Source: a bacterium (lineage in GTDB: Bacteria; Patescibacteriota; Minisyncoccia; Portnoybacterales; GWB1-42-6). From it: a stretch of DNA of 64,000 nucleotides. Made by a program: the position numbers and the translations under genes. This document shows positions 4,179-53,632 of the stretch, one piece after another. The notes under the pieces are model-generated. The model was not told the origin of the DNA. It ran no database searches and saw only the letters and a program-made list of their open reading frames with translations. The stretch covers positions 111,186-175,185 of the forward strand of contig JAZDMV010000023.1 in NCBI GenBank assembly GCA_043800535.1. Direction: 5' to 3'. Within the stretch, counting starts at the first letter, position 1. Every line of letters begins with the position of its first letter.

Positions 4179-4989
4179 TTATCGTCATGCTTTCCAATTC
4201 TCCTTCACGCTGAATACCCCTGAATTTTCCGCTGGGGAAAATATCAATTATTGATAAACCGACCTTATTTAATATTTTTTTTATTGACCTCTCTGTAAAA
4301 TGCCAGGTATGGTCAACTAAAGATAACCAAGGTCCTTGAGCACTCATTTTAGGAATCCGAATAACAAAAATTCCGTCTTGAGCCAAAAGTGGTTTTATTT
4401 TTTTAATAAACGATGATGGATTCTGAACGTGCTCAAGAAGGCTGTACATCGCGATAACATCGTAACGACTCTTTCTCAAAGAGTTGGTAAAAGAACCTTG
4501 CGGAGGAGAAAAAACCACTTTCAGCCCTTTTTTTTGACAAATTTTTATCGCTTCTTTTGAAAATTCAACGCCATCGGTTGTCTTAAAACCTTTTTCTTTG
4601 GCCGCTATCAAGGTGTGGCCGTAAGCGCAGCCAACCTCTAAAATCGACTCTGGATTCTTTTTGTATTTTAAAATTTCTTCTACCCTTATCTTGGCGATGG
4701 CCGTTGATTTTTCGTCGCTAACCGTTAACCCATACATATCGTCCGTACCTTTAAAATAAGAGGGGTGGTTATAGAGGCTGTCCAGATATTCTGGGCCTGG
4801 CTGAGGGAAAAGGAATAATAAATCATCAGCGACACAATGCCTGATCCTGTAAGTCTCTGCGTTGATGCTGAAAATAAATCTATCCGCTGTTTTATTTTTT
4901 CCGCGACAAAGGCAACAGCGCACAAAATGGCTGTCTTGAGATTTCAGCCACGGGTATTTTAAATTTAATTGGGGAAGATTTTTTTTCAT
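4162..4989 (-). CDS. Class I SAM-dependent methyltransferase (Cys-rich N-terminus)
   Basis: SAM-binding motif I ILEVGCAYGHTL. An acidic motif follows. The N-terminus carries a CCLC...C...C cluster. Confidence 0.7.
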   Translation of the reverse strand: MKKNLPQLNLKYPWLKSQDSHFVRCCLCRGKNKTADRFIFSINAETYRIRHCVADDLLFLFPQPGPEYLDSLYNHPSYFKGTDDMYGLTVSDEKSTAIAKIRVEEILKYKKNPESILEVGCAYGHTLIAAKEKGFKTTDGVEFSKEAIKICQKKGLKVVFSPPQGSFTNSLRKSRYDVIAMYSLLEHVQNPSSFIKKIKPLLAQDGIFVIRIPKMSAQGPWLSLVDHTWHFTERSIKKILNKVGLSIIDIFPSGKFRGIQREGELESMTIIAKHK

Positions 4990-36978: not shown

Positions 36979-37055
36979 CTGCATAATCCCGCCGCCAATC
37001 AAAAAAGGCCCTGCAACCGCCGGGCCTTTTAAAATTCTTACATAATATTTATTTC

Positions 37056-37095
37056 ATGTAATTCTTTCATACTTGCAAGTATGAAAGAATTACAT
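37056..37095. terminator. Perfect 40-bp palindrome between convergent genes, likely a bidirectional terminator
   Basis: atgtaattctttcatacttg/caagtatgaaagaattacat. AT-rich flanks and a T-run follow. Confidence 0.4.
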
Positions 37096-37130
37096 AGACG
37101 CATTTTTCCCTCTTCGCATCAAAATCCCAA

Positions 37131-37176
37131 TCGTACATACACTCCCGTGCTCGGGAGCACGGGAGTGTATGTACGA
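37131..37176. repeat. Palindromic repeat family A copy 1 (core actcccgtgctcgggagcacgggag)
   Basis: 22-bp perfect stem with a gg loop. It lies immediately after the stop of 37193-41011. Confidence 0.5.
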
Positions 37177-37192
37177 TACTAAATTAAAGGTG

Positions 37193-40100
37193 TCACTCAA
37201 CCTGTCCGCTGGTATAGTAAACTTGATAATTCTGCGCACCGCCGTAAAAGACGAGACGCAAAATATTCTGAGCGTCTATCACTCCCCTTGCCCACCTGAC
37301 GTAAAACGGAAATTCAAGAATTTTTCTGGGTTGCCGCCACCGGCCACCTTCTCTTTGCAAAACCATATACATTTCATAATTAACTCCGTTGTTGGCACAA
37401 AAAATCAAATACGGCTTACCCGAACTATTCAAAATTAATTCCGGCAAACTTAGAATTTCTGCGGGGTCGCCCAATGAAAAAACTTGCACTGTTGAGGTAG
37501 CAATACCGTCAAATTCTATCATGCGAATCTCGCGAACCCTCCATTCCCAACTAATTAAAAGCTTGCCCTCTTTATTAAATATCATTTCCGGCTTTTCACC
37601 GAGCGACCACACCTCGCTGAAGTTAAAAATTTTCCGTGCTTCGCTCCAGCCAAAACCATCCTGATTATTAAATGCATAATAGATGCCGTCACAAGCCCCA
37701 CTCTGGCAGCGATACCAGACCGCATGCAATTTCCCATTTCCGTCTAAAACTATATTTGGCGTAACGCCATAATCAGAATCAATAATTTTTTCAATAGCCT
37801 CCGCAAACGAACCGTCTGCGCCGAGCTTTCTATAAAGTATTGCCGAAACGTATGAAGTCGTGGAGACTGTGCCTTGCCAAATAATATGAGTGCTGCCAGT
37901 TTGATCAATTACGCCAGACGGCGAAAAATTATTACGGCCGTCTCCGGAAACATTCTGCACCGCCTCCCAAACGCCAGCGTTATAGCGCGAATAAAAAACA
38001 TCAAAACCCGGCGGGCTGCCCCAGGGCCGCGGTTTCACTTCCCCGTCAAAAATGACACTCACATTGTTTTCTCTTATAAAGATTTGCGGCGGATAGCTCC
38101 ACGGACCAAATTCGCTTCCGATGTTTTCAATCTCGCCCCAGCTGCCACCGCTATTTTTATTTGAAACAGCAATAAAAGTATTCTCTGTTGTATAAGCAAA
38201 ATGCCAAATAACCGATGGCCTGCTTTCGCTGTTTAAAACAATCCCCGGCAAAACAGAAGTTGTTGTTGTCGCATTGCCCGAAATTATTTCCGGCTCAGCC
38301 AAAGAGATTGGGAATATTACAGAAGTCGTTGAAGCGACATTACTGAAAACACAATAATCCAAATTATCACAGGCCGCAATCCTGTAATAATAATCTGTTT
38401 CTGATTCTAATGTGGTGTCACGAAAATTTGTCGCGCTAATATTATCTGTGACACTCGTCGTCGCAAATGAATTATCATAAGACCGGATCACTTTATATTT
38501 TTCCAGGCCCGGCAGGGCGCTCGCTGTCCATTCAAGCAAAGTTGATGTCGCGGTTGTTTCTTTGACGGGATAAAGATAGAAAAATTCCAAATTGAAAACA
38601 CTGTTTTGGGATTTTGGAGTACCATTTATTGCCCGGCCGTCCGCGTTAATGCCCGAACGCGTGCTGGTGCTATTACTTTTCCAATTCCCAGGCACATCCC
38701 AGGCCAAATAAGGATTTACGCGTTCCATGCTCAAGTAGTGCGGGCCAGCCGTGCCTGCTGGCCAGCCGATTGAAAAATCAGCCCAATCAATTATCCCGCC
38801 AGTATTATCTATAAGGCGCAAATTTTCTCCAGAGTTTGATAGACCGCTCCCGCCAAAACTATGTGCTAAATCAGCCACTATGTCACTAACCGTGCCATCG
38901 TCTCCGCGTTCAATTAAATAATATGATCTTGGCGCTATCGTATTTTGCAAATTTGCCACAGTGGTCGTGGCGCCTACTACCTCCGCTATTTGCCAACCGG
39001 TTAAATCTATTGTTCCGTCCGTTTTATTATAGAGTTCTATCCACTCGTCAGCCGAAGTCGAAGCGCTTGTCCCTGCCCAGGCAATTTCGTTAATAACGAC
39101 GGGATAAAAATTTATTGACGCGGCAACTTCCTGCCATTCGCCTGCGCTGCTGCTTGCGTTAGTAGCGCGTGCCCGAAAATAATAAATTGTTAAATCCTGC
39201 GACCCCTCAAAAATTTTGCTTTCGCTCGTTGTCGCAATTTCCCAATCCTGCCAAACAATAGCCGAGCTTGAGCCAATTTTGTATTGAACGCTATAGGACG
39301 CAACGTCTGTTGATGAACTATGCCAATTGACGTCAAAACTTCGCGCTGCATTTTTGTAATCCGAAAGCCAAATTGAAATTTCGGGCGGCGAACTGCTATT
39401 TTCATCTGGCTCTTCTGATTCATCTTGCGTTCCTGACTGTTCATCTCCTATTTCATCGGAGCTACTGCTCCGATGAAAAATAGCTCGCTCATGTAGCGGG
39501 CTTGATGTCGCTTTTGGTAAATTTAATTTAAAAATCTGTTCTGAAATTTGCGGTGTTTCTGGTGCAAAAACCTCTTCTGTTATTTGCGGCTGTTGCGGCA
39601 AATTACCGCTAGAATCGGTTTGGATGACATTGGCCGGCATTATTGGTTTTTGCGGAGCAGCTGTTCCGAGAACTAAATTTTTTGACGTCTGCGCTGATGT
39701 TGCGGCCGGCGGCGAACTGACCACCGATGGCTTAGCAACCTGACCCGTATCGCCTTGGGAAACCTGCGTCTGCGTTGAAAAAAACAAAGATGCAAATAAG
39801 CCAGAAACACCATTGTATGTTGTGCCCCAGGCCGACGATATCTGACCAAAAATGTCCTGTATCCCCGGCCAAATTTTTATAAACTCTCCATATGGAGAAA
39901 ATAATGGAGTCAGCTCGCGCGCCGAAAGAATGGCGGTCAAGCCGGTTGTAAACTTAAGCATGCCATTTGAAACATTCGGCGGCGGCTTTAATAAATTTCT
40001 GTCTTTTTCCGCTTTGGCGACTTCTTCGTGAAAAATTCTGATAACCTCCGTTCCGGCTAAGACGGCCTGTTTGGAAAGAAGACGCCAATAGGAGGACAGG

Positions 40101-41011
40101 ACTACTTTTTGGCTCACTAAAATTTCTCCGCTTCTCATGTCTTTTTCTGCCATTATATATTCTTCGCCTTTAGAATCTATTCTATAATATTCCTCAAAAA
40201 TTCCTACAATTTCTTTTCTGTCAGCGATTATTCTTTTATATGCGACGTCATTAATGCTATTAGCGCTAAAAAAATTCTCATTTGAGTATCTGGCAACTTT
40301 CACAAAGCAATCGTCTAAATTTGAACAATAAAAGTTTTCCTGCCGTAAATTTAAATTGTTAATATGCGATAGATCAGTATTCTCTTTTGCCCATTTTTCA
40401 TACGGCTCGCCCGGATCGCCGGCCAGGCCATCAACATGCGTGTCCTGCCGCGTGTGCGCCGGAACTGACATATCTTCTATTAGATGCAGAATATGGCCAA
40501 GCGACTTAAGTGCCTCTTTTTTGTCACCGTTGACGTAATCATAGACAGCTTTCTCAAAAGTCCGGTTGCCTTCGTAGCGCGCGTATTGGCTCTGCAAGCC
40601 CTGGTTATGCAGCCAATCAAGAGCCGAAACAGCACTTTCGGCTGAAAGCCCGATTTCCGACAAAAGCCGCACCATTGCCGGCGAAACACTGCCCAGCCGC
40701 TCGCCCTGCCAGCCAAGACCAGTTGTCGGGTCGTAAAAATGGTTAATCCAGCGTGGCGGTGTATCTTCATTTCGGGCGCCTTCGGCTATCAAGTTGATTT
40801 CCTCGCTGCTTAACGGCCTACCTAATTGGCCATAAATTTCTGCCGACTTTCTAGCTAATGAAGAATGGGTCGGATCCGGCTCATATGCCTGCGCGTAAAA
40901 AAATACAACCGCAAAAACCAACAAAAAAAGCCAAACGCAAAAGCATGGCTTCTTAAATAATGCCCTCCTCATTATTACATAAGCAAAACGTAAATTTTTT
41001 ATTTTGTGCAC
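37193..41011 (-). CDS. Large secreted multidomain protein: N-terminal Zn-dependent phospholipase C-like domain, fibronectin-III-like and lamin-tail (LTD) domains, C-terminal beta-rich repeats
   Basis: N-terminal signal/TM segment. NHFYDP and LHLIEDMSVPAHT match the Zn-PLC signature HxxxDxxxPxH. The LTD motif is NEIAWAGTS...EWIELYN...LTGW...NSGENLRLID. Confidence 0.65.
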   Translation of the reverse strand: MHKIKNLRFAYVIMRRALFKKPCFCVWLFLLVFAVVFFYAQAYEPDPTHSSLARKSAEIYGQLGRPLSSEEINLIAEGARNEDTPPRWINHFYDPTTGLGWQGERLGSVSPAMVRLLSEIGLSAESAVSALDWLHNQGLQSQYARYEGNRTFEKAVYDYVNGDKKEALKSLGHILHLIEDMSVPAHTRQDTHVDGLAGDPGEPYEKWAKENTDLSHINNLNLRQENFYCSNLDDCFVKVARYSNENFFSANSINDVAYKRIIADRKEIVGIFEEYYRIDSKGEEYIMAEKDMRSGEILVSQKVVLSSYWRLLSKQAVLAGTEVIRIFHEEVAKAEKDRNLLKPPPNVSNGMLKFTTGLTAILSARELTPLFSPYGEFIKIWPGIQDIFGQISSAWGTTYNGVSGLFASLFFSTQTQVSQGDTGQVAKPSVVSSPPAATSAQTSKNLVLGTAAPQKPIMPANVIQTDSSGNLPQQPQITEEVFAPETPQISEQIFKLNLPKATSSPLHERAIFHRSSSSDEIGDEQSGTQDESEEPDENSSSPPEISIWLSDYKNAARSFDVNWHSSSTDVASYSVQYKIGSSSAIVWQDWEIATTSESKIFEGSQDLTIYYFRARATNASSSAGEWQEVAASINFYPVVINEIAWAGTSASTSADEWIELYNKTDGTIDLTGWQIAEVVGATTTVANLQNTIAPRSYYLIERGDDGTVSDIVADLAHSFGGSGLSNSGENLRLIDNTGGIIDWADFSIGWPAGTAGPHYLSMERVNPYLAWDVPGNWKSNSTSTRSGINADGRAINGTPKSQNSVFNLEFFYLYPVKETTATSTLLEWTASALPGLEKYKVIRSYDNSFATTSVTDNISATNFRDTTLESETDYYYRIAACDNLDYCVFSNVASTTSVIFPISLAEPEIISGNATTTTSVLPGIVLNSESRPSVIWHFAYTTENTFIAVSNKNSGGSWGEIENIGSEFGPWSYPPQIFIRENNVSVIFDGEVKPRPWGSPPGFDVFYSRYNAGVWEAVQNVSGDGRNNFSPSGVIDQTGSTHIIWQGTVSTTSYVSAILYRKLGADGSFAEAIEKIIDSDYGVTPNIVLDGNGKLHAVWYRCQSGACDGIYYAFNNQDGFGWSEARKIFNFSEVWSLGEKPEMIFNKEGKLLISWEWRVREIRMIEFDGIATSTVQVFSLGDPAEILSLPELILNSSGKPYLIFCANNGVNYEMYMVLQREGGRWRQPRKILEFPFYVRWARGVIDAQNILRLVFYGGAQNYQVYYTSGQVE

Positions 41012-41066
41012 TTTTTTAAATTTTTACCCCAAAACAGAATTAAAAAATCATTTATCTAGCCAAATT

Positions 41067-41603
41067 CTACAAACTGTAAATTTTCCAGATATTAGCGTAC
41101 TTGTTTAATTGAAATGTCACCGTGCCGCTATATGTGCCCGCCTCTAAAATTGCATTCCTGCCAAGAAGTTCGTCAAAATACTCTCTATCTTTTTCCACGA
41201 TAAAAGTAAACGAATATTGTTTCCCATCCTTATCCCAATACTCCTCCTCTTTCATCTCCTCCCATTTCGGCAAATCATCAATATACTTCTGCAATTCGCC
41301 TTTGGCGGCCAAGTCCTGCAATTTGGCTTTTTGCCCGTCTTCTTTCTGAAAATAAAAATAGCGGCTGGCTGATTCCAGGTCTCCACGTTTCAAAGCCGCG
41401 ACATACAAATCGTACGTTTCCTGCGGCGTTGCGCCGCCGTATGTGTCGCTCTTAAAATAACTAGTCAGCTCATTCTCAACTGCCTGCCAGTCACGGCCGA
41501 TCTTCCAGCTTTGATAATAAGGCCAGGCAAAAAAATAAACCACCCAGATAAAGGCGGCCGCAATTAAAATAAAAATCCCGCTTGCAATAATTTTTTTTCG
41601 CAT
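41067..41603 (-). CDS. Hypothetical membrane-anchored protein
   Basis: Single N-terminal TM segment (IIASGIFILIAAAFIWVVYFF) then a charged soluble domain. The start is taken at the internal MRKK. Confidence 0.4.
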   Translation of the reverse strand: MRKKIIASGIFILIAAAFIWVVYFFAWPYYQSWKIGRDWQAVENELTSYFKSDTYGGATPQETYDLYVAALKRGDLESASRYFYFQKEDGQKAKLQDLAAKGELQKYIDDLPKWEEMKEEEYWDKDGKQYSFTFIVEKDREYFDELLGRNAILEAGTYSGTVTFQLNKYANIWKIYSL

Positions 41604-41723
41604 ATTTATTTTCAATCTAAATATAAACCAGCTGATTTTTCCTGCCTCTATTCTAAAACCAATGTCCACCGCTGTCTATCCCCAATTCTTTCTTCCCGCG
41701 GCCACCAATTTCGCAATCTTGCA

Positions 41724-41772
41724 ATCGCACATAAACTCCCGCGCTCGGGAGCACGGAAGTTTATGTCTGATC
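41724..41772. repeat. Palindromic repeat family A copy 2
   Basis: aatcgcacataaactcccgcgctcgggagcacggaagtttatg. It shares the core with copies at 37131 and 42320 and overlaps the stop of 41761-42303. Confidence 0.5.
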
Positions 41773-42303
41773 GTTGATTTTGATAGTTTTGAAAGCCGAA
41801 TTTATTTGCTTATACAGGGCTGATTTTTTATCCATTTTAGCAATCGCAGCTTTTAATCTGTTTTTATTACGGTAATTCGCCGCCTTAATTATTTCTTCCA
41901 AAACAATCTGCGGCCAGTAGTAAGATGGGTACCTCTTTTTTATTTGTTCAAAAGGCGTTTTCTCTCCGTAATTTTTTTTCACTCCTTTATTCTTTTTTGT
42001 CCTTTCTAGTACTAAACGATATCCTTCGCCTGAATATTTTAACCATTCTCCCACCCGCGCTATTTTTGATGCTCCGACTTTCAAATGACGCATTATCTCT
42101 GTATAACCAAATCCGTCAAGCAATAATTCTGCTATCTTTAACCTTTTAGCCAGCATTTCCAGCTCCTGCACAGTGATTAGATCGCGCATAAATTCTGCCG
42201 CTTCAACAGAATCTCGCAGAGACGCCAAAGCTTCACAGAACTGTATCGTCAATCTCTCGATCTCTTCCTTGCTAAGCTTTGAATTTATACTAAATTTATT
42301 CAT
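41761..42303 (-). CDS. TrpR/YerC/YecD-family helix-turn-helix DNA-binding protein
   Basis: EFMRDLITVQELEMLAKRLKIAELLLDGFGYTEIMRHLKVGASKIARV is the TrpR-like HTH. The start is taken at MNKFSIN. Confidence 0.55.
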   Translation of the reverse strand: MNKFSINSKLSKEEIERLTIQFCEALASLRDSVEAAEFMRDLITVQELEMLAKRLKIAELLLDGFGYTEIMRHLKVGASKIARVGEWLKYSGEGYRLVLERTKKNKGVKKNYGEKTPFEQIKKRYPSYYWPQIVLEEIIKAANYRNKNRLKAAIAKMDKKSALYKQINSAFKTIKINDQT

Positions 42304-42319
42304 TTTAACGCCCAAATAT

Positions 42320-42368
42320 AATCGCACAGAAACTCCCACGCTCCCGAGCACGGGAGAAGACGTGCGAT
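42320..42368. repeat. Palindromic repeat family A copy 3
   Basis: atcgcacagaaactcccacgctcccgagcacgggagaagacgtgcgat. It lies between the stop of 42397-44652 and the start of the TrpR-like gene. Confidence 0.45.
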
Positions 42369-42396: not shown

Positions 42397-44652
42397 CTAG
42401 AGGCCGGAAGCTTTCAGAAACTGATCAACGTAATCTTTTTGCGAGGGGTCGATCTCAACCACTTTCAAAGCCGCTTCTTTCGCCTTGTCTCGCTGTCCGT
42501 CTGCCAGATAACTGTCTGCCAAAGCGGCATAGATGTCCGCGTTTTGCGGCGAGAGCTGCAGGCCTTTCAATAAACAAGAGATGGAACGACCAAGATCGTT
42601 ATTGTTCCGCAGAATCATCCCCAGTCTTAAATAATTGCTGGCGGTCAGGGCGTCAGGCCCGAATCTTTGCTGAATATCGGCGAGCTTCGCTTCGCCGTCC
42701 TGTATCCTGCCAATCGCAAAATACATCAATGCTAAATTCCAATGAGGATCAAGAATTTTATCGTTCAGGGCGATCGCTTTTTTGAAAAGCTCCAGCCCCT
42801 CGTCGATTTTGCCAAGCCGCAGTTTCGTCTCCCCAAGCCCGAAATAGAGAAGTTCTTTTGTCGGGCTAAGTTTTAAGGTGTCAGAAAAAATTTCTTCAGC
42901 GCGCACAAGGCGGCTGGCATCCATTGGCACGGCGGCAAGATTCAATTCACCGATGCTCACGGCATAACGGGCGTCCTGCGGCCTTTCTTTTATATTTTTG
43001 TCGCCTTCCTCAAGCGCCAAACGGACAAAATCATCCACCGGCCCTTTATTCTGATATTTGTCGTAACTAGTCATCAGATTTTTTGCTATGTCAAAAAGCT
43101 GAAGCCGCACCTCAAACCGGCCAAAAGTCCCGTAGCTCAATGCTTTTCTAAAATTAGCGTCAACCGCCTGCAGGCTTTCCTGCTGGGCGGCTAAGGCCTT
43201 TATGCCCCAGATCCCCGCCAAAGCCGGCTTAATGTTCAAAAAATAACCAAAGAAAATAAGAACGACAGCCACTGCCACCTGCAGAAAAACATTTGGCCTG
43301 ATAGGATGCGGAGTCGCGACAGCGCGTTTCTCTGATTTACCAATCCAGTCAATAAACGCCAAGAAAGTAAAAAGTGGCAAATAAGAGTAAATCATATCAA
43401 AAACGAAAAAGTCCTGCGCCAGATATCCAAGCGGCAAGATCGCAAAAAGCGCGGCGTTCAGAAAATCAATTCTTTTTTGTTTATAGGCGCGCCAGATAAT
43501 GACCAGAACCAAACCAAAAATAGAAAGAAAACTCAAAAATCCCAAAAAACCAGTTGTAACAAGCGTGTCAAAAACAATGTTGTGCGCCCGGTCAAACCAG
43601 TTCTCAACCGGATAGAGCTGCGGATCGTAGAATTTATTAAACACCACGTTATAGTTTTCCCAGCCCCAGCCCAAGATCGGCCTCTCCTTGACCCCTTCCC
43701 AGCTCATTCCCCAGGCCAGAAGCCGTGTCTGGGAAGTGGTCTCGCTTGCAGAGATATTTGCCAAACGCCGCAGGGTATAGGAGTTCCGGACCCATCCCGA
43801 ATTTTTGAAAACAAAAACTGATGCGGAAAACAGGACAAAACAAATTAAGATCACGGCAGAAATTCTTTTCAGTTTTTTCCTGATTGTAGCAAAAGCAGGC
43901 GTTTCTTCGACGCTTCTCGGCCAAAAAATCATGGCCACAAGGAACAGAATAAGCGAAGCGCCAAAAGCCAGCAAACCGCCTCTGGTCTGCGTCCAGAAAA
44001 GGATCACAAACGCAAAAAGGAAAGCGGCCGCGTAATAGATCCTGGCCAAATTTCGGCGCCGCTGAAAATACATAAAAACGATGAAAAACAGAAGAAACAA
44101 AAGATAGGCGGCAAAATAAGCACCGTTGCCAAAAGTCGCCGAAATTCTGCCAACACCGGCCAGAAAAAATCCCTGAACTCCCAGTTTTTGGAAAAGACCG
44201 ATAAAGCAAAGCGCCAGGCCAGCTGCGATAAAAAAGTCAAAAACCATCAGCCAGTCCTTTTTGGTCTTAAAAACAGAGCTCAAGATCACAAAAAGCGCAA
44301 AATAATGCAGCATGGTGATAAATCCGGTCATTCTTTCATACGAACTCCAGAAGCTTAGGAAAAAATCAACTCCCAAAACGCCGCTCAAAAAAACAATGAA
44401 CATAAAAACGGCGACCACCCAAAAAAGGCGCGAAAGCCGCGGCCGGAATTCCGGGCGATCAAACATCAAAAGAAGCCAGGCAAAAAAAGCGATTTCAACC
44501 AGAACCTGGAAAAGCGCGGTTTTGGGAAAAACAAAAGGAAAAATAAAAGCGTCGCTGACAAAAAGCGGCGTGAAAAAAGAAGCGATAACGGCCGCCTTAA
44601 CAATAAACAGCAAGATTGAATTTTTTGTCCCATTGGAAATTTGGTTGTTCAT
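42397..44652 (-). CDS. O-antigen ligase (Wzy_C) family membrane protein with C-terminal TPR repeats
   Basis: About 12 TM helices. FWTQTRGGLLAFGASL is the Wzy_C loop motif. The C-terminal roughly 250 aa carry TPR-like repeats (ALNDKILDPHWNLALMYFAIGR...). Confidence 0.7.
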   Translation of the reverse strand: MNNQISNGTKNSILLFIVKAAVIASFFTPLFVSDAFIFPFVFPKTALFQVLVEIAFFAWLLLMFDRPEFRPRLSRLFWVVAVFMFIVFLSGVLGVDFFLSFWSSYERMTGFITMLHYFALFVILSSVFKTKKDWLMVFDFFIAAGLALCFIGLFQKLGVQGFFLAGVGRISATFGNGAYFAAYLLFLLFFIVFMYFQRRRNLARIYYAAAFLFAFVILFWTQTRGGLLAFGASLILFLVAMIFWPRSVEETPAFATIRKKLKRISAVILICFVLFSASVFVFKNSGWVRNSYTLRRLANISASETTSQTRLLAWGMSWEGVKERPILGWGWENYNVVFNKFYDPQLYPVENWFDRAHNIVFDTLVTTGFLGFLSFLSIFGLVLVIIWRAYKQKRIDFLNAALFAILPLGYLAQDFFVFDMIYSYLPLFTFLAFIDWIGKSEKRAVATPHPIRPNVFLQVAVAVVLIFFGYFLNIKPALAGIWGIKALAAQQESLQAVDANFRKALSYGTFGRFEVRLQLFDIAKNLMTSYDKYQNKGPVDDFVRLALEEGDKNIKERPQDARYAVSIGELNLAAVPMDASRLVRAEEIFSDTLKLSPTKELLYFGLGETKLRLGKIDEGLELFKKAIALNDKILDPHWNLALMYFAIGRIQDGEAKLADIQQRFGPDALTASNYLRLGMILRNNNDLGRSISCLLKGLQLSPQNADIYAALADSYLADGQRDKAKEAALKVVEIDPSQKDYVDQFLKASGL

Positions 44653-44802: not shown

Positions 44803-47046
44803 CTATTGCCCCATTTTTTTCCTGACGACTTCAATAAATTTATCCACGGTTTCTTTGGTAGAAGGATTAAGCTCGGCTGATTTTTGCGCTGCTTCAATCG
44901 CCTTTTGGTATTGTCCAGTTTGATAATAAGCGTTGGCCAGAGAGGAATAATAGAGATAGTTGGTTGTGCCGTTCTTTATCACAAGATTAAGCCAGCGAAT
45001 TTCATTCTCTTTGCTTGAAGCCGGCGCAAAAAGCGGCATAAACCTGTCTAAATTTTCCTGGCCCACGTGATGTCCCATATCAATGGCTTTGACAAATGCC
45101 TCTTTGGCATTTTCAAAGTCCTGTTTCTGGAATAGGATCTTTGCCAATTCCCAATAGGAACCGGGGACTTTATCGTTCAGCGCGATCGCTTTTTCAATGA
45201 CACTCTGCGCCGCGTCAAATTTTCCGGCAAACATCAGGTTTTCCATCAAAATATAATAAAGCGTGACGCGGTTGGGGGAGCTGGCGATCGCTTTATCAAT
45301 ATAGATTTTGGCTTCGTCCCTGAAGCGCGTGTCCAGATCAGTGGCATATCGGACGTCAAGCAGTTCGGCCAGCTTATAGTTGTAATAAGTATCGTCCGGC
45401 ACATATCTTAAATTCTGCTTGTGCAGATCAATGGCAAAGTCCAGATCAAATTTCTGGTTGGGGTTTTGGGCCACGGCCGTGTAATAATTATGGATCGCGT
45501 TGGCCGCCACGGTTTTCAGATCCAGGTCCCAGAAAGTGTTATAGGAAACTGATTTTTTCAGATAGCTCATGCCAGCCTGATACGCCTGCTGCTGCTGGCC
45601 TTCATAGGGCTGGAAAAGATAGACCTGGGCCATGACACTGTCTTTGAAGGCCTTATATGGCTTTACGACAAAAAGATTCGTTGAATAGTAAAGACCTGCC
45701 CCAAAAATGATTGCGGCCACAATAACTAAAGCGGGCCGAAATTTTAGCGCCGAAACTTTTTGTGCGCCTGGCTCCTGTTTTTCGTCAGCCCAAAATTTCC
45801 CGACAAAAACTAAGAGTACAGACAAACCAAGCAAGGCGGGCAGAGAGTCAAACAAAAACAGATTCTGGACAAAATACGCGATGACTAGGCCGCCAAAAGC
45901 ACCCAAAAAGACAAAATCCTTGTCTTTTTTGTAGAGCTTGACTACGCAGTAAAAAACGCAGGACAAGAATACAAGATATGTTAGCAGCCCTAAAATTCCG
46001 GTTGCGGCCAGGTGCTCAATTATGACATTGTGCGCTCGGTCAAAATATTCTTCAGCCGCAAAATTATAGTATCTGGCATCAAAATATTTATTGAACGGCT
46101 GGGTAAAATTTTCATATCCCCAGCCAAGCACTGGCTTATCCAAAAACCCCAGCCAACCGGCTTTCCAGGCGATAAGACGGCCTTGGATAGTTGCGTCTCC
46201 GGATGAAAAATGCACGAGCCGATACAAATAGGCACTGTTTTTTATGAAGCCTTGGTTCTGCAGCGCGAAAAACATGCCATACACCGCCACCAAAAAAAGA
46301 AATCCGGCAACCAGGCCCCTGCGCAATTTAGGACTGCCCAAATTTTTGACGATCGCAAAGAAAGCGAAAACAAAACCGACGGCAATTCCCAAAAAAGCAC
46401 CGCGGGTCCCAGTCAGAAAAATAGCCAGGCCGTGAATCGCAAAAACGCCGCCATAAACAACACGCCAGGACCATTTTGAATTTTTCAGGCAGAGATATGC
46501 GGAGAAGAACAAGCCAAAAATAAGATAGGCCGCCAGTTTGGCCGCGTTGCCAAACATGGCAAAAATTCTATTCTCGCCGGCGATGCTGGTCAGCCCAAGT
46601 TTCTGCAAAAGCCCATAGACGGCAACAATAGTGCTGGCCGCCAAAAAAACATTAAGCAAAAAGTTGACTTCTTTTTTTTCACCAAAGATGCTCGTGCCGA
46701 CCAGAAACAAAACAAAGAAATAAAGCATGCCAAACAATCCCGTCATTCTTTCCACGTCCCCCCAGAAACTTAAGAACGGACTGGCGCTAAAAACAGTTGA
46801 AGCCGCCAAAGCCAAAAGATAAAGGCCGAAAGACCCGAGCAAAATGCTGAAGCGCGGCCGTTCTTTTGGAAAAAGCAAAATAAAAACCAGCCAGGCAAAA
46901 AATAAGATGTTGACAACTAGACGGAAAAATAAAGTGCTTGAAGAAACATAAGGGAAAAAAAGATAACGGTCAATCACCAGAGGAGAAAATAAAGAAACAA
47001 AAAATAAAATTTGGAGGATTCGTTTAAAGATATTTTGTTTGGGCAT
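44803..47046 (-). CDS. O-antigen ligase (Wzy_C) family membrane protein with C-terminal TPR repeats (tandem paralog)
   Basis: FLTGTRGAFLGIAVGF is the Wzy_C motif. TPR-like C-terminus (AIALNDKVPGSYWELAKILFQKQDFENAKEAF). Confidence 0.7.
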   Translation of the reverse strand: MPKQNIFKRILQILFFVSLFSPLVIDRYLFFPYVSSSTLFFRLVVNILFFAWLVFILLFPKERPRFSILLGSFGLYLLALAASTVFSASPFLSFWGDVERMTGLFGMLYFFVLFLVGTSIFGEKKEVNFLLNVFLAASTIVAVYGLLQKLGLTSIAGENRIFAMFGNAAKLAAYLIFGLFFSAYLCLKNSKWSWRVVYGGVFAIHGLAIFLTGTRGAFLGIAVGFVFAFFAIVKNLGSPKLRRGLVAGFLFLVAVYGMFFALQNQGFIKNSAYLYRLVHFSSGDATIQGRLIAWKAGWLGFLDKPVLGWGYENFTQPFNKYFDARYYNFAAEEYFDRAHNVIIEHLAATGILGLLTYLVFLSCVFYCVVKLYKKDKDFVFLGAFGGLVIAYFVQNLFLFDSLPALLGLSVLLVFVGKFWADEKQEPGAQKVSALKFRPALVIVAAIIFGAGLYYSTNLFVVKPYKAFKDSVMAQVYLFQPYEGQQQQAYQAGMSYLKKSVSYNTFWDLDLKTVAANAIHNYYTAVAQNPNQKFDLDFAIDLHKQNLRYVPDDTYYNYKLAELLDVRYATDLDTRFRDEAKIYIDKAIASSPNRVTLYYILMENLMFAGKFDAAQSVIEKAIALNDKVPGSYWELAKILFQKQDFENAKEAFVKAIDMGHHVGQENLDRFMPLFAPASSKENEIRWLNLVIKNGTTNYLYYSSLANAYYQTGQYQKAIEAAQKSAELNPSTKETVDKFIEVVRKKMGQ

Positions 47047-47174: not shown

Positions 47175-47528
47175 TTATATTTCGTTATATATTTTTTCTA
47201 CTACATTCTCAATATTTTTCAAAACGTCCAAGTTTGTAAATCGCAAAATGCGTAAATTTAATCTATTCAAAGATTCTTCCCGTTTTTTATCTTCTTCTAT
47301 ATTTTTATTTTCGTAATGCTGTCCCCCATCAATTTCTATCACAAGCCTAGCATCTTTGCAATAAAAATCAGCGATATAATTGTCTATCGGTTTTTGTCTG
47401 TAAAATTGAAAGTCCTTTATCTGCCGCCTTCTTATCTTTGACCATAATAATTTTTCTGCGTCTGTAGAATTTCTACGCAACTGACGGCTTAGTGATTTAA
47501 GATTTTCGCCGTATGAGAAAAATTCCAT
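47175..47528 (-). CDS. DUF559 endonuclease-domain protein (restriction-endonuclease-like fold)
   Basis: ADFYCKDARLVIEIDGGQH is the signature DUF559 motif. 117 aa. Confidence 0.65.
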   Translation of the reverse strand: MEFFSYGENLKSLSRQLRRNSTDAEKLLWSKIRRRQIKDFQFYRQKPIDNYIADFYCKDARLVIEIDGGQHYENKNIEEDKKREESLNRLNLRILRFTNLDVLKNIENVVEKIYNEI

Positions 47529-51764: not shown

Positions 51765-52934
51765 CTAAAAAGTCGTTACCTGGATAGGAGCCGGCGGGAT
51801 GGTTAACGGCAATTCAATGTATGAGCTGGTAGAAGTCGCACTCGGCAAGGCATTTTCCGTGCTGGAAGCGTTTTTCTTATCGGAAACCGGCTCGGCCGCT
51901 TTATCAGCATCAGAACCAGCCGCTGGCGTGGCATTCCCGCTTTCTACTATCTTTTCAGCGTTTTTTACCATTTCGTTGATGGCCTTGATCATCTCCAACG
52001 CCGCGACTGTGTCATTGTTCTGCAAACTCTCTTTTGCCTGGCTGACCGCCTTATCTGATTCATCAAGAATGATTGTCGCGTTTATCGCCAATTTATTGGA
52101 AATCGTTGAACTGGCAACTGACATTTCCAAATTCTTTATTCTCATTTCCGTTTTTTGTATCTTCTCGCCTAAATTGGCAACAATATCTGCCTGGTCTCCG
52201 GCATCGCTTTGTTTACTCATCATCATTTCCAGCGCTTTTGTGCTGGTTTTATCCGCCTCATCAGCCGCTTCGGTTATTTTTTCTGCTAAACTTGGCTTCA
52301 TTTCTGCAGAAAGCGTCAATCTTGCCTGGCCTAACGCATGCTCGGCCTGAACCGCGTTTTTATCTATTTTTTTAGCTACCTCAACCGCTTTTTTTGCGTC
52401 TGTTCCGCTTAATTTTGGCAAATCGTCTTTCGCGGTCAGAAGATACCTCTGCAAATTAGTGACTGCCTGTTCAATCCTCGGCTGCCTTGCCTCAATGGAA
52501 TCACTGGCATTTATCACCCTATTCAACTCATCAAGCCGAGAGGCAATCATTTCGCTCTGAAACTCTGCCTTTCCTTCGGCAGAAGTAGTTGTAAAAAGCC
52601 GGGCTTGTTCAAGCGCGATTTTAACCGAATAAAGGCGGTCGCCGGGCAAACTCTCTTTTGCCATAGTCAATGCGCCTAAGCTGCTGCTAAAAATAAGCAC
52701 AAAAACAACTGTCATTATAGATATTGGCTTTAGAGCAGGCCCGAATACATTTAACTGGCGCAGCCAGGTGAAAAATCCGATTGAATTGGCATTGACTGCC
52801 ATTTTCTGTTCCCGGCCATTCTCAAACATTGAAACCAGATTTTGCCGACAAAAAACCGCCCAATTTTCATCAGGGGTTATTTCCTTTAATTCGCGAAGCC
52901 GTTCTATAAGCTGGTTTTCGGTTATTTTTGTCAT
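51765..52934 (-). CDS. DUF5667-like membrane protein, putative anti-sigma factor partner of the upstream ECF sigma factor
   Basis: N-terminal cytoplasmic segment, one TM helix (ISIMTVVFVLIFSSSLGAL), then a long helical extracytoplasmic domain with a low-complexity tail. It lies immediately downstream of the ECF sigma gene. Confidence 0.45.
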   Translation of the reverse strand: MTKITENQLIERLRELKEITPDENWAVFCRQNLVSMFENGREQKMAVNANSIGFFTWLRQLNVFGPALKPISIMTVVFVLIFSSSLGALTMAKESLPGDRLYSVKIALEQARLFTTTSAEGKAEFQSEMIASRLDELNRVINASDSIEARQPRIEQAVTNLQRYLLTAKDDLPKLSGTDAKKAVEVAKKIDKNAVQAEHALGQARLTLSAEMKPSLAEKITEAADEADKTSTKALEMMMSKQSDAGDQADIVANLGEKIQKTEMRIKNLEMSVASSTISNKLAINATIILDESDKAVSQAKESLQNNDTVAALEMIKAINEMVKNAEKIVESGNATPAAGSDADKAAEPVSDKKNASSTENALPSATSTSSYIELPLTIPPAPIQVTTF

Positions 52935-53001
52935 CCTAATAAATAAGACGGAAAAACGCCTATTCTATTACACCTGGGACACGAACAAAATAAGCATATA
53001 A

Positions 53002-53046
53002 ATCCCCACACCATGGGCTTACGCAGAGTTTTTCTGGTGTGGGGAT
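53002..53046. repeat. Palindromic hairpin element with a 12-bp stem atccccacacca/tggtgtggggat (copy 2 of 2)
   Basis: The stem is identical to the one at 36540-36582. The 21-nt loop is different. It lies between the sigma and anti-sigma genes. Confidence 0.5.
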
Positions 53047-53104
53047 AAACAAAAACAGTCCCGACGTGATATCGGGACCGCTTTAAATCCATAGTTTATC
53101 CTCA

Positions 53105-53632
53105 TTACCGATTATTAGCCCTTTTTGCCTCTAAAACGGCCTTTAGAGCCCCTATTGCCCTGGAAAGCGAGGTTCTGACCGCTCCTTCTGATTTACCCCA
53201 AATTTCACAGATTTCAGGCACGCTGAAGTCGTCAATATAGTGCCAGATAATAAGCTCCTGATATTCGTCTTTCAGCTCTCGCAAGCATTCTCTGACCTTA
53301 TCCAATTCCAGGCCTGTTTCCGCGCCACCAATCACTTCTTCCTCTGATTCGCTTAAATCCAATTCGGAAGTCGTTTCCAAAGATATTGGCAATTTGGAAA
53401 CGTTCCGGAAATTATCGGCAATCATATTTCGGCAAATTTGGTAGACCATTGCCGATAAATTTCCAATTTCTTTTCCGCCTTTTATGTACTGCCACATCTT
53501 CATAAAGGCCTCTGCTGATATATCCTGAGCGACTTGTTCCGAGCCAACCCGAAAATAAACATAGCGATAAATCTTCGTTATGCTTTGATCGTAAAATTCA
53601 AGAAATTTTCGTTCATTTTCCGCTAATGTCAT
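53105..53632 (-). CDS. RNA polymerase sigma-70 family ECF sigma factor
   Basis: Region 2 (FYDQSITKIYRYVYFRV...AEAFMKMW). Region 4 HTH (ELIIWHYIDDFSVPEICEIWGKSEGAVRTSLSRA). 175 aa. Confidence 0.8.
   Translation of the reverse strand: MTLAENERKFLEFYDQSITKIYRYVYFRVGSEQVAQDISAEAFMKMWQYIKGGKEIGNLSAMVYQICRNMIADNFRNVSKLPISLETTSELDLSESEEEVIGGAETGLELDKVRECLRELKDEYQELIIWHYIDDFSVPEICEIWGKSEGAVRTSLSRAIGALKAVLEAKRANNR

Follow-up and report, generated by a model that had tools for sequence, protein, structure and literature searches.

The window analyzed here, a stretch of 64,000 nucleotides from contig JAZDMV010000023.1 (GenBank assembly GCA_043800535.1) of a bacterium of the patescibacterial order Portnoybacterales, contains three related palindromes around a gene for a TrpR-like regulator. 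The palindromes, designated W1, W2, and W3 (W3 is also referred to as O1 and W2 as O2), are a real feature of this DNA. On balance, they appear to be operator sites of the adjacent regulator, which would control its own gene and the neighboring ones. They represent the version, in this lineage, of a cis-element that is conserved before and after the gene of a long-form YerC/YecD protein in bacteria of the candidate phyla radiation. Comparison across lineages lends the operator reading strong support: the same layout before and after the regulator gene recurs in all ten lineages compared, with palindromes that are specific to each lineage and fit a single half-site frame. Binding of the protein to the palindromes, repression by this binding, and any looping between the sites are what we infer from the sequences.

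Bacteria of the candidate phyla radiation (Patescibacteria) are known mostly from metagenomes and possess few regulators; an episymbiotic lifestyle has been described for some members. To our knowledge, gene regulation in these bacteria is almost unexplored. Likely binding sites that are legible in the DNA before and after a regulator gene in many lineages offer an entry point and a motif with which the regulon can be searched. The regulator gene is located beside genes encoding Wzy-type and LTD surface proteins, and its product may control cell-envelope functions relevant to episymbiosis.

Palindromes at the regulator locus

The palindromes of the window and of a relative described below belong to a GC-rich type, termed class a; sites of the ATACT-N4-AGTAT type are termed class b. 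The class-a core comprises 30 bp, [AnACT]-CCC-[GYGCT]-CSSG-[AGCRC]-GGG-[AGTnT], with the half-sites given in brackets, and continues as a palindrome for approximately 9 bp in either direction, to a total of about 48 bp. A scan of the 64 kb with the 25-nt core pattern (up to three mismatches) returned three sites only (0.00 expected, 100 shuffles); together with the coordinates (Table 1), it bears out the three copies with a shared core described in the initial annotation. A profile hidden Markov model built from seven copies found no fourth class-a copy in the window. All copies are located within 5.2 kb. W1, which had been described as a 22-bp stem at 37131-37176, is indeed a perfect palindrome, but its stem measures 23 bp and extends from 37130 to 37177. 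Folding of the single-stranded DNA gave z-scores of −11.2, −5.5, and −4.4 for the three copies relative to shuffled sequences. Long palindromes (arms of at least 14 bp) are rare: they occur only eight times in the 64-kb window, and three of the eight are found at the regulator locus.

W3 consists of a paired core with an internal block of four mismatched nucleotides and reads [CTTCT]-CCC-[GTGCT]-CGGG-[AGCGT]-GGG-[AGTTT] on the coding (minus) strand. The orientation of W3 is opposite to that of W1 and W2, with CC versus GG at the center on the plus strand; the centers of W2 and W3 are accordingly opposed. With its asymmetric flanks included, W3 reached a profile score of 56.6 bits on the minus strand and 19.5 bits on the plus strand. 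The compensatory arm changes noticed earlier are real symmetric substitutions in the outer and inner half-sites: ACACT..AGTGT is exchanged for AAACT..AGTTT (C..G to A..T) and GTGCT..AGCAC for GCGCT..AGCGC (T..A to C..G), and symmetry is kept in both cases.

The previously described position of the copies at gene boundaries was confirmed by their distances to start and stop codons. The genes at the locus are all encoded on the minus strand, which is the G-rich and presumably the leading strand (the GC skew is negative on the plus strand throughout the window). The order in the direction of transcription is Wzy_C-TPR gene, W3, TrpR-like gene, W2, the gene of a 178-aa protein, the gene of a 1272-aa protein, W1, a class-b palindrome, and a terminator. 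W3 is located 28 nt past the stop codon of the Wzy_C-TPR gene (42397-42399) and 17 nt (26 nt from the core) ahead of the ATG of the regulator gene at 42303. W2 overlaps the stop codon of the regulator gene (41761-41763) and lies 120 nt ahead of the next ATG (41603). W1 is found 15 nt past the stop codon (37193-37195) of the 1272-aa gene, in a spacer between convergent genes.

The class-b palindrome next to W1 had not been mentioned in the initial annotation. Its sequence, [ATTCT]-TTC-[ATACT]-TGCA-[AGTAT]-GAA-[AGAAT], is of the type that flanks the TrpR-like gene in other lineages, and it is identical in 40 of 40 positions in the relative (L032, 2843-2882), where the flanks differ. A second TrpR-like paralogue, sought in the window to account for this site, was not found.

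The relative is a lineage represented by the loci L009 and L032 in sample 3300032118 of the Joint Genome Institute (JGI) metagenomes; its syntenic contig has approximately 79% DNA identity to the window. It keeps W3 (L009, 3456-3499) and W2 (L009, 4059-4103) at the same positions and with the same inverted centers, and W1 at the orthologous place (L032, 2922-2968) together with the neighboring 40-bp palindrome. The class-a cores are nearly identical between the window and L009/L032, the flanks contain insertions, deletions, and substitutions, and at this nucleotide identity the sites are better conserved than the flanking spacer. So far, five class-a copies are known in the relative. A degenerate class-a pattern returned eight chance palindromes only, all from GC-rich genomes, among 185,579 species-representative genomes, and no matches in viral contigs. 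In the JGI metagenomes, real matches came only from sample 3300032118. Four of the chance matches (L008, 7381-7454; L011, 8110-8183; L013, 1853-1907; L018, 3537-3610) share an element of approximately 70 nt, CTGTTGGTTGGTCTGATCTGTTGTCCTTCCACGCTCCGGAGCGCGGAAGGACCGAATGGCCAGGCCATGGGAAC, which stems from an Acidobacteriaceae genome and soil metagenomes and is an unrelated repeated or conserved element.

Bracketing of the regulator gene in ten lineages

Loci were fetched for homologues whose identity to the regulator falls stepwise from 63% to 45%, and ten lineages were compared, namely the window, L009/L010, L020, L021, L022, L025, L026, L027, L029, and L030. In 10 of 10, one copy of a lineage-specific palindrome precedes the regulator gene and a second copy follows it. 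The upstream copy is located 16-57 nt before the ATG of the regulator gene, the downstream copy at or just past its stop codon. The palindrome sequence varies between lineages, and the two copies within a lineage match. No other copies of the bracket palindromes were found in the 10-20 kb fetched around each regulator gene and scanned for further palindromes. The bracket is kept despite varied neighbors (Wzy_C and a membrane protein, PGK and tRNA-Gly, HAD and IleRS, SHMT and CofD). A literature search yielded no description of such an arrangement in bacteria of the candidate phyla radiation.

When aligned at the dyad, the sites of all lineages fit one 30-bp frame with four half-sites in the arrangement 5-3-5-4-5-3-5, which in class b takes the form [nnACT]-N3-[ATACT]-N4-[AGTAT]-N3-[AGTnn]. 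ATACT-N4-AGTAT cores are present in L020, L021, L022, L026, L027, and L030; the core of L025 is TTCAACGATTCGAATCGTTGAA, and L029, from a Doudnabacteria genome, contains ATAGT/ACTAT repeats. The outer half-sites are AnACT, ATACT, or AGACT, and half-sites of like orientation recur every 8 bp. The left flank of class a, GACAYA, is also present in the L027 sites. A derivation of class a from a class-b operator by a 20-bp GC-rich insert at the dyad, suggested by a CATAC-N6-GTATG match, was dropped, since the dyad alignment is simpler and requires no insertion.

The dyads of the two copies are 572-721 bp apart in the ten lineages, with no helical phasing. The copies are inverted relative to each other in the window, L009, and L026 and direct in L027 and L029. 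The upstream site of L030 overlaps the sigma-70-like promoter TTTACA-17-TAAAAT, which ends 6 nt before the ATG. The upstream site of L027 overlaps TTGAAG-17-TAGAAT, and the whole 74-nt module of operator and promoter is repeated before the next gene.

The regulator protein

The regulator clearly belongs to the TrpR/YerC family. Its sequence is identical to MFH0852585.1 and matches Pfam PF01371 (E = 5.7e-17) as well as TIGR02531 (59.5 bits, cut-off 42.2), with 3FRW and 3G1C as relatives in the PDB. According to an AlphaFold2 model and Foldseek, the N-terminal domain has the TrpR fold (TM 0.83-0.86 to 3FRW). The helical C-terminal extension of approximately 75 aa gave no structural match in the PDB with Foldseek, and structure prediction provided no clue to this domain. 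Across the ten lineages, the regulator comprises 175-185 aa; homologues named by taxon are from Doudnabacteria, Levybacteria, Moranbacteria, and the "Patescibacteria group".

An alignment of 52 family members was used to compare the predicted recognition helices. The residue in the first turn of this helix (position 80) is Thr in 48 members, Ala in two, and Lys in two. The carriers of Lys80 are exactly the two class-a lineages, and it is in these that the inner half-sites show G instead of A (GYGCT versus ATACT). This co-occurrence of a GC-rich inner half-site with Lys80 in place of Thr was counted for the operator reading. The natural pairing of Thr/Lys with ATACT/GYGCT provides a ready system for a specificity swap. 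The residue equivalent to Arg69 of TrpR was considered as a determinant of the site class and rejected, because it is Glu in both P0031 (class b) and P0016 (class c).

Proposed operator function and competing explanations

If the operator reading is correct, the regulator would bind the palindromes as double-stranded DNA. Four half-sites in a 30-bp core would leave room for two dimers in tandem or for a tetramer. Binding to W3, just upstream of the regulator start, would lead to autorepression. W2, at the regulator stop, may serve to control the next transcription unit, to block read-through, or to form a loop of approximately 600 bp with W3. W1, with the class-b site beside it, may be a further site that marks the far end of the gene group. 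The layout before and after the gene raises a testable question of looping or read-through control.

TrpR recognizes GNACT half-sites by tandem dimer binding, with the spacing GNACT-N8-AGTNC, and regulators of the TrpR/HisR family autoregulate through palindromic operators (PMC9413887). The locus agrees with such operators in part. A cognate TrpR-family gene is located beside the sites, between W3 and W2, and a phylogenetic footprint is visible between the window and L009 and L032. The position of W3, 17 nt before the ATG, fits an operator at a promoter, and the L030 and L027 sites overlap promoter-like hexamers; W2 and W1 lie off promoters. The outer half-sites AnACT/AGTnT resemble GNACT, the inner ones (GYGCT/AGCRC) do not, and the spacing differs from the N8 of TrpR. 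With a 30-bp core and a 48-bp palindrome, the sites exceed the length of approximately 18-20 bp.

Several observations weigh against operator function. W1 is located between convergent genes and has no gene to regulate, and W2 stops short of the next −35-like box by 45 nt, so that it does not overlap this promoter-like site. Because of these positions, at a convergent gene end and off the promoter, W1 and W2 do not fit the simple picture of a repressor at a promoter. The earlier proposal that the palindromes are operators of the TrpR-like repressor gains strong support from the before/after layout recurring in all ten lineages. The 48-bp palindrome forms a very stable GC-rich hairpin and is longer and more symmetric than the usual 18-20-bp operators of TrpR and HisR. 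The promoter-like matches in L030 and L027 are no commoner than in shuffled sequence, and for this reason the overlaps are consistent with the operator model without adding to it. Beyond Lys80, covariation of protein and site is weak, since classes b, c, and d are accompanied by nearly the same recognition helix. In the relative, two extra class-a copies were found inside unrelated operons and in both orientations, one in the spacer between an ABC-transporter ATPase gene and the permease gene belonging to it, the other between a deoxyhypusine-synthase-like and an agmatinase-like gene. They share the non-palindromic flanks CCCAA (left) and ATTAYATTTT (right), which suggests that a unit of approximately 65 nt was duplicated and resembles the pasting of a copied unit more than operators that evolved convergently. 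Finally, the asymmetries of the class-a core comprise five G.U, no A.C, and three other departures on the coding strand. This 5:0 pattern hints at a constraint at the RNA level, and the hairpin may have an additional role in RNA or as a cruciform; the excess of G.U could also be explained by the C-to-T bias of the leading strand. The departures from symmetry in classes b-d (17 non-pairing ones of the transversion type, five G.U, and three A.C) would mostly break an RNA stem and were counted for a DNA operator. Selection on an RNA stem, as judged by G.U versus A.C, is suggestive for class a alone, absent elsewhere, and confounded by the mutation bias of the strands, and was not retained as a general explanation.

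Repetitive extragenic palindromic (REP) elements and bacterial interspersed mosaic elements (BIMEs) are dispersed over a genome in tens to hundreds of extragenic copies and are characterized by a 5′ GTAG and by the REP-associated tyrosine transposase RAYT (Y1 transposase). Miniature inverted-repeat transposable elements (MITEs) have terminal inverted repeats and a target-site duplication, attC sites carry the boxes RYYYAAC..GTTRRRY, and intrinsic terminators consist of a GC-rich hairpin directly followed by a U-tract on the transcribed strand. It is improbable that the palindromes are REP- or MITE-like mobile elements, which would spread after stop codons and stabilize or terminate the upstream mRNA by their hairpin, with the adjacency to the regulator being incidental. 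The presence of the relative's extra copies in two unrelated operons in both orientations, their 93%-97% identity to W1 in genomes that are only about 79% identical, and the duplicated unit suggested by the shared asymmetric flanks are what a mobile element would lead one to expect, as is the position of every copy 3-28 nt past a stop codon or overlapping one. The hairpin is also very stable, and a terminator test flagged W3, and W3 alone, as terminator-like (tail TTTCTGTGCG). Behind W1 comes TTGGGA.., behind W2 TTGCAAG.., and neither has a U-tract; W1 is not needed as a terminator, because a canonical one is located at 37000-37033. The generic REP element doubling as a terminator that the initial annotation had considered is not in line with these data: the copies are few and clustered (three in 64 kb at one locus, five known in the relative), and, chance matches apart, the 185,579 genomes and the viral contigs contained none. 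A generic element was expected to turn up hundreds of times at random gene ends, and such numbers were seen neither in the window nor in the representative genomes nor in the one relative. The aligned flanks contain no GTAG box, the flanks of the seven copies show neither a target-site duplication nor GTTRRRY, and no Y1_Tnp, RAYT, or other transposase is encoded by the main open reading frames (ORFs) of the window. The palindromes do not qualify as intrinsic terminators, MITEs, or attC sites. The three copies of the locus occupy orthologous positions in two species. Mobility would leave unexplained why, around this one gene and at its two ends, other lineages have palindromes that differ in sequence and yet share the half-site frame.

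A function of the elements as RNA hairpins, either as 5′ and 3′ stem-loops for mRNA stability or translation or as a W3-W2 duplex that is cut by RNase III and frees the regulator mRNA, seems about as doubtful as a mobile origin. The elements are probably transcribed, as the genes are co-directional and the spacers short. W3 and W2 are approximately 76% complementary over 51 nt, and the inverted centers of W3/W2 and of the two L026 copies maximize their mutual complementarity. In several lineages, the upstream site has a fixed distance of 16-17 nt to the ATG, and on the coding strand the class-a core shows five G.U departures and no A.C. In L027 and L029, however, the two copies are direct and not inverted, and the asymmetries of classes b-d, being mostly non-pairing or A.C, do not fit a conserved stem. 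In the class-b sites, which are AT-rich, T-runs precede the stem and A-runs follow it, the reverse of what a terminator shows, and for class a the leading-strand bias, visible as negative GC skew on the plus strand of the whole window, can account for the G.U excess. Rfam 15 contained no matching family; chance hairpin (miRNA-like) matches reached at most 29 bits compared with gathering scores of 57-96. Still less probable, and in our view very improbable, is a role for another protein or process, in which the palindromes are recombination sites bounding a cassette or an invertible segment, or cruciform elements, and the regulator gene is cargo. Near-identical palindromes flanking one small gene, their inverted orientation in the window, L009, and L026, and an unusually perfect symmetry (23/23 in W1, 20/20 in the class-b site) would suit such a role. 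Yet gene order is stable across lineages whose regulators are 56%-83% identical to the window protein, without a sign of mobility or inversion, no recombinase is encoded nearby, the attC R′/R″ boxes (GTTRRRY) are absent, and the copies of L027 and L029 are direct repeats. Taken together, we favor operator function over REP-like elements, RNA-level hairpins, and recombination or structural sites, and hold it to be slightly better than an even chance. The single locus is ordinary regulatory DNA; the bracket rule derived from ten loci and the Thr/Lys specificity pair constitute a useful, testable lead.

A more far-reaching proposal is possible but rather doubtful. Patescibacteria may share an undescribed autoregulatory design in which a long-form TrpR-like regulator acts on four-half-site palindromes on both sides of its own gene, possibly with looping. 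In the lineage of the window, a change of specificity with Thr80Lys would have been accompanied by growth of the site to a 48-bp hairpin module and by its copying into other operons. If this were true, a transcription-factor binding site would propagate like a small mobile element.

Comparison with known systems

The protein and its sites share several properties with E. coli TrpR, which acts on trpO and aroH and autoregulates trpR. The TrpR fold is common to both (Foldseek TM about 0.7 to 1TRO), as are dyad sites with nNACT-type half-sites at an 8-bp period, comparable to tandem binding (1TRR is among the Foldseek matches), and a site that precedes the regulator's own gene. In contrast to TrpR, which uses GNACT-N8-AGTNC in 18-20 bp, the inner arrangement here is ACT-N4-AGT in a 30-bp core, and the gene has a second identical site at its 3′ end. 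Unlike TrpR, the protein is 180 aa long and carries an additional helical domain at the C-terminus as well as Lys80; the sites of this lineage have GYGCT inner half-sites, and no tryptophan genes are found nearby.

HisR regulators of Firmicutes (YerC family) have palindromic operators with a lineage-specific consensus, binding in vitro, and autoregulation in about half of the genomes; the HisR motif is the 20-bp cacTTTAnnnnnnTAAAgtg upstream of his biosynthesis and transport genes, and HisR proteins are shorter than 100 aa (PMC9413887). The regulator of the window belongs to the same NCBIfam family as HisR (B. subtilis YerC), TIGR02531, the type to which the closest solved structures, 3FRW and 3G1C, belong, and its sites are likewise palindromic and lineage-specific. 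Unlike the HisR motif, the palindrome measures 30-48 bp, has another sequence, occurs in a cell-envelope gene context, and is present on both sides of the gene.

The likeness to REP elements and BIMEs consists in a palindrome with a stable hairpin that is located in short spacers after stop codons, in either orientation and also within operons. The copy number here is lower by orders of magnitude, and no GTAG box and no RAYT were seen in the window; moreover, the copies stay in place between orthologous loci, belong with a single regulator gene, and have positional counterparts of different sequence in other lineages. As in lac (O1/O2), gal (OE/OI), and deo, two copies of what is here a putative operator are separated by a few hundred base pairs, with one copy at the promoter and the other further downstream. 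Looping is conjectural here, the downstream site follows a whole gene, and helical phasing is missing, in contrast to these systems.

Further features of the locus

The coordinates of the palindromes, genes, and signals are summarized in Table 1.

Table 1. Features of the regulator locus in the 64-kb window
Feature	Position	Strand	Remarks
Intrinsic terminator, bidirectional	37000..37033	.	A-tract, GC hairpin, T-tract; common to the convergent genes
Class-b palindrome	37056..37095	.	Perfect 40 bp (20/20 arms); 34 nt from W1
W1	37130..37177	.	Perfect 23+23 bp palindrome, 2-nt center; core 37139-37168
1272-aa LTD/fn3 surface-type protein gene	37193..41011	-	Last gene before W1; syntenic in L026
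178-aa membrane-anchored hypothetical protein gene	41067..41603	-	First gene downstream of W2; synteny also in L009, L020, L021, L026
Promoter-like TAGACA-17-TAGAAT	41650..41678	-	Upstream of the 178-aa gene, 45 nt downstream of W2
W2 (O2)	41724..41771	-	19/23 arm pairs; core 41733-41762
TrpR-like regulator gene (180 aa, YerC/YecD type)	41761..42303	-	PF01371, TIGR02531
W3 (O1)	42321..42368	-	Core 42330-42359; dyad between 42344 and 42345
Wzy_C (O-antigen ligase-like) and TPR gene	42397..44652	-	Directly upstream of W3; synteny recurs in other loci

The promoter-like sequence ahead of the 178-aa gene is kept in the relative (L009) as TAGACA-17-TAAAAT. The bidirectional terminator is shared with the convergent gene of a 110-aa membrane protein, and an equivalent terminator is located at the corresponding position in L026 and in L032 (2790-2820). 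The 1272-aa protein had been annotated as PLC-like; domain searches detected no PLC-like domain in it, only LTD and fn3 domains. In the relative, homology to the LTD gene beside the W1 orthologue is limited to approximately 180 nt of its 3′ end (L032, 2975-3460), after which a different 101-aa ORF begins on the minus strand; the large LTD gene may be truncated or replaced there. The one candidate for a gene downstream of W1 is an ORF of 21 codons, MRLCNSFILASMKELHEINIM (37099-37034, minus strand), with a GAGGG ribosome-binding site ahead of its start (GAGGG-N5-ATG). It begins 30 nt past W1, crosses the class-b palindrome, and stops just short of the terminator. It is probably not coding; it may represent a small RNA or peptide unit controlled by W1, or a product of chance.

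Two tandem paralogous Wzy_C and TPR genes (42397-44652 and 44803-47046) are located directly upstream of the regulator gene, and this pair is also present in L020 and L023. In two other loci, short repeats mark the 3′ terminus of the Wzy_C gene located upstream or the sequence immediately after it: L021 contains three copies of CATAAAATCGCTGGGGACATA at a spacing of 17 nt (4556-4610), and L020 the short tandem or direct repeat TTGGAATAGAG.. (4591-4666). They resemble repeated last codons plus stop of the Wzy_C gene. The spacer upstream of the TrpR-like gene in L020 is unusually long (approximately 400 nt) and includes a perfect hairpin with a 20-bp stem (AGCCCTTCGCTCAGCAATCC / GGATTGCTGAGCGAAGGGCT; 4758-4802) and a second long-range pairing.

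The regulator gene is situated at the edge of a surface-glycan synthesis cluster of approximately 36 kb (447-36521), in which nearly all genes are located on one strand. The cluster comprises seven paralogous B12-binding radical-SAM genes, four genes for glycosyltransferases of the PMT_2 type, two for DegT aminotransferases, several GDP-mannose-dehydratase-like genes, many methyltransferase genes, and GT2/GT4 genes. Seven paralogues of the B12-radical-SAM type seem many for a presumably small genome. A small DUF559/REase-like gene (47175-47528) is located between the second Wzy_C-TPR gene and the gene of a 1157-aa protein without a Pfam match. In the region 51765-53632, a gene for a sigma factor of the extracytoplasmic function (ECF) type (53105-53632) lies beside the gene of a DUF5667 protein, with which it may form a sigma/anti-sigma pair.

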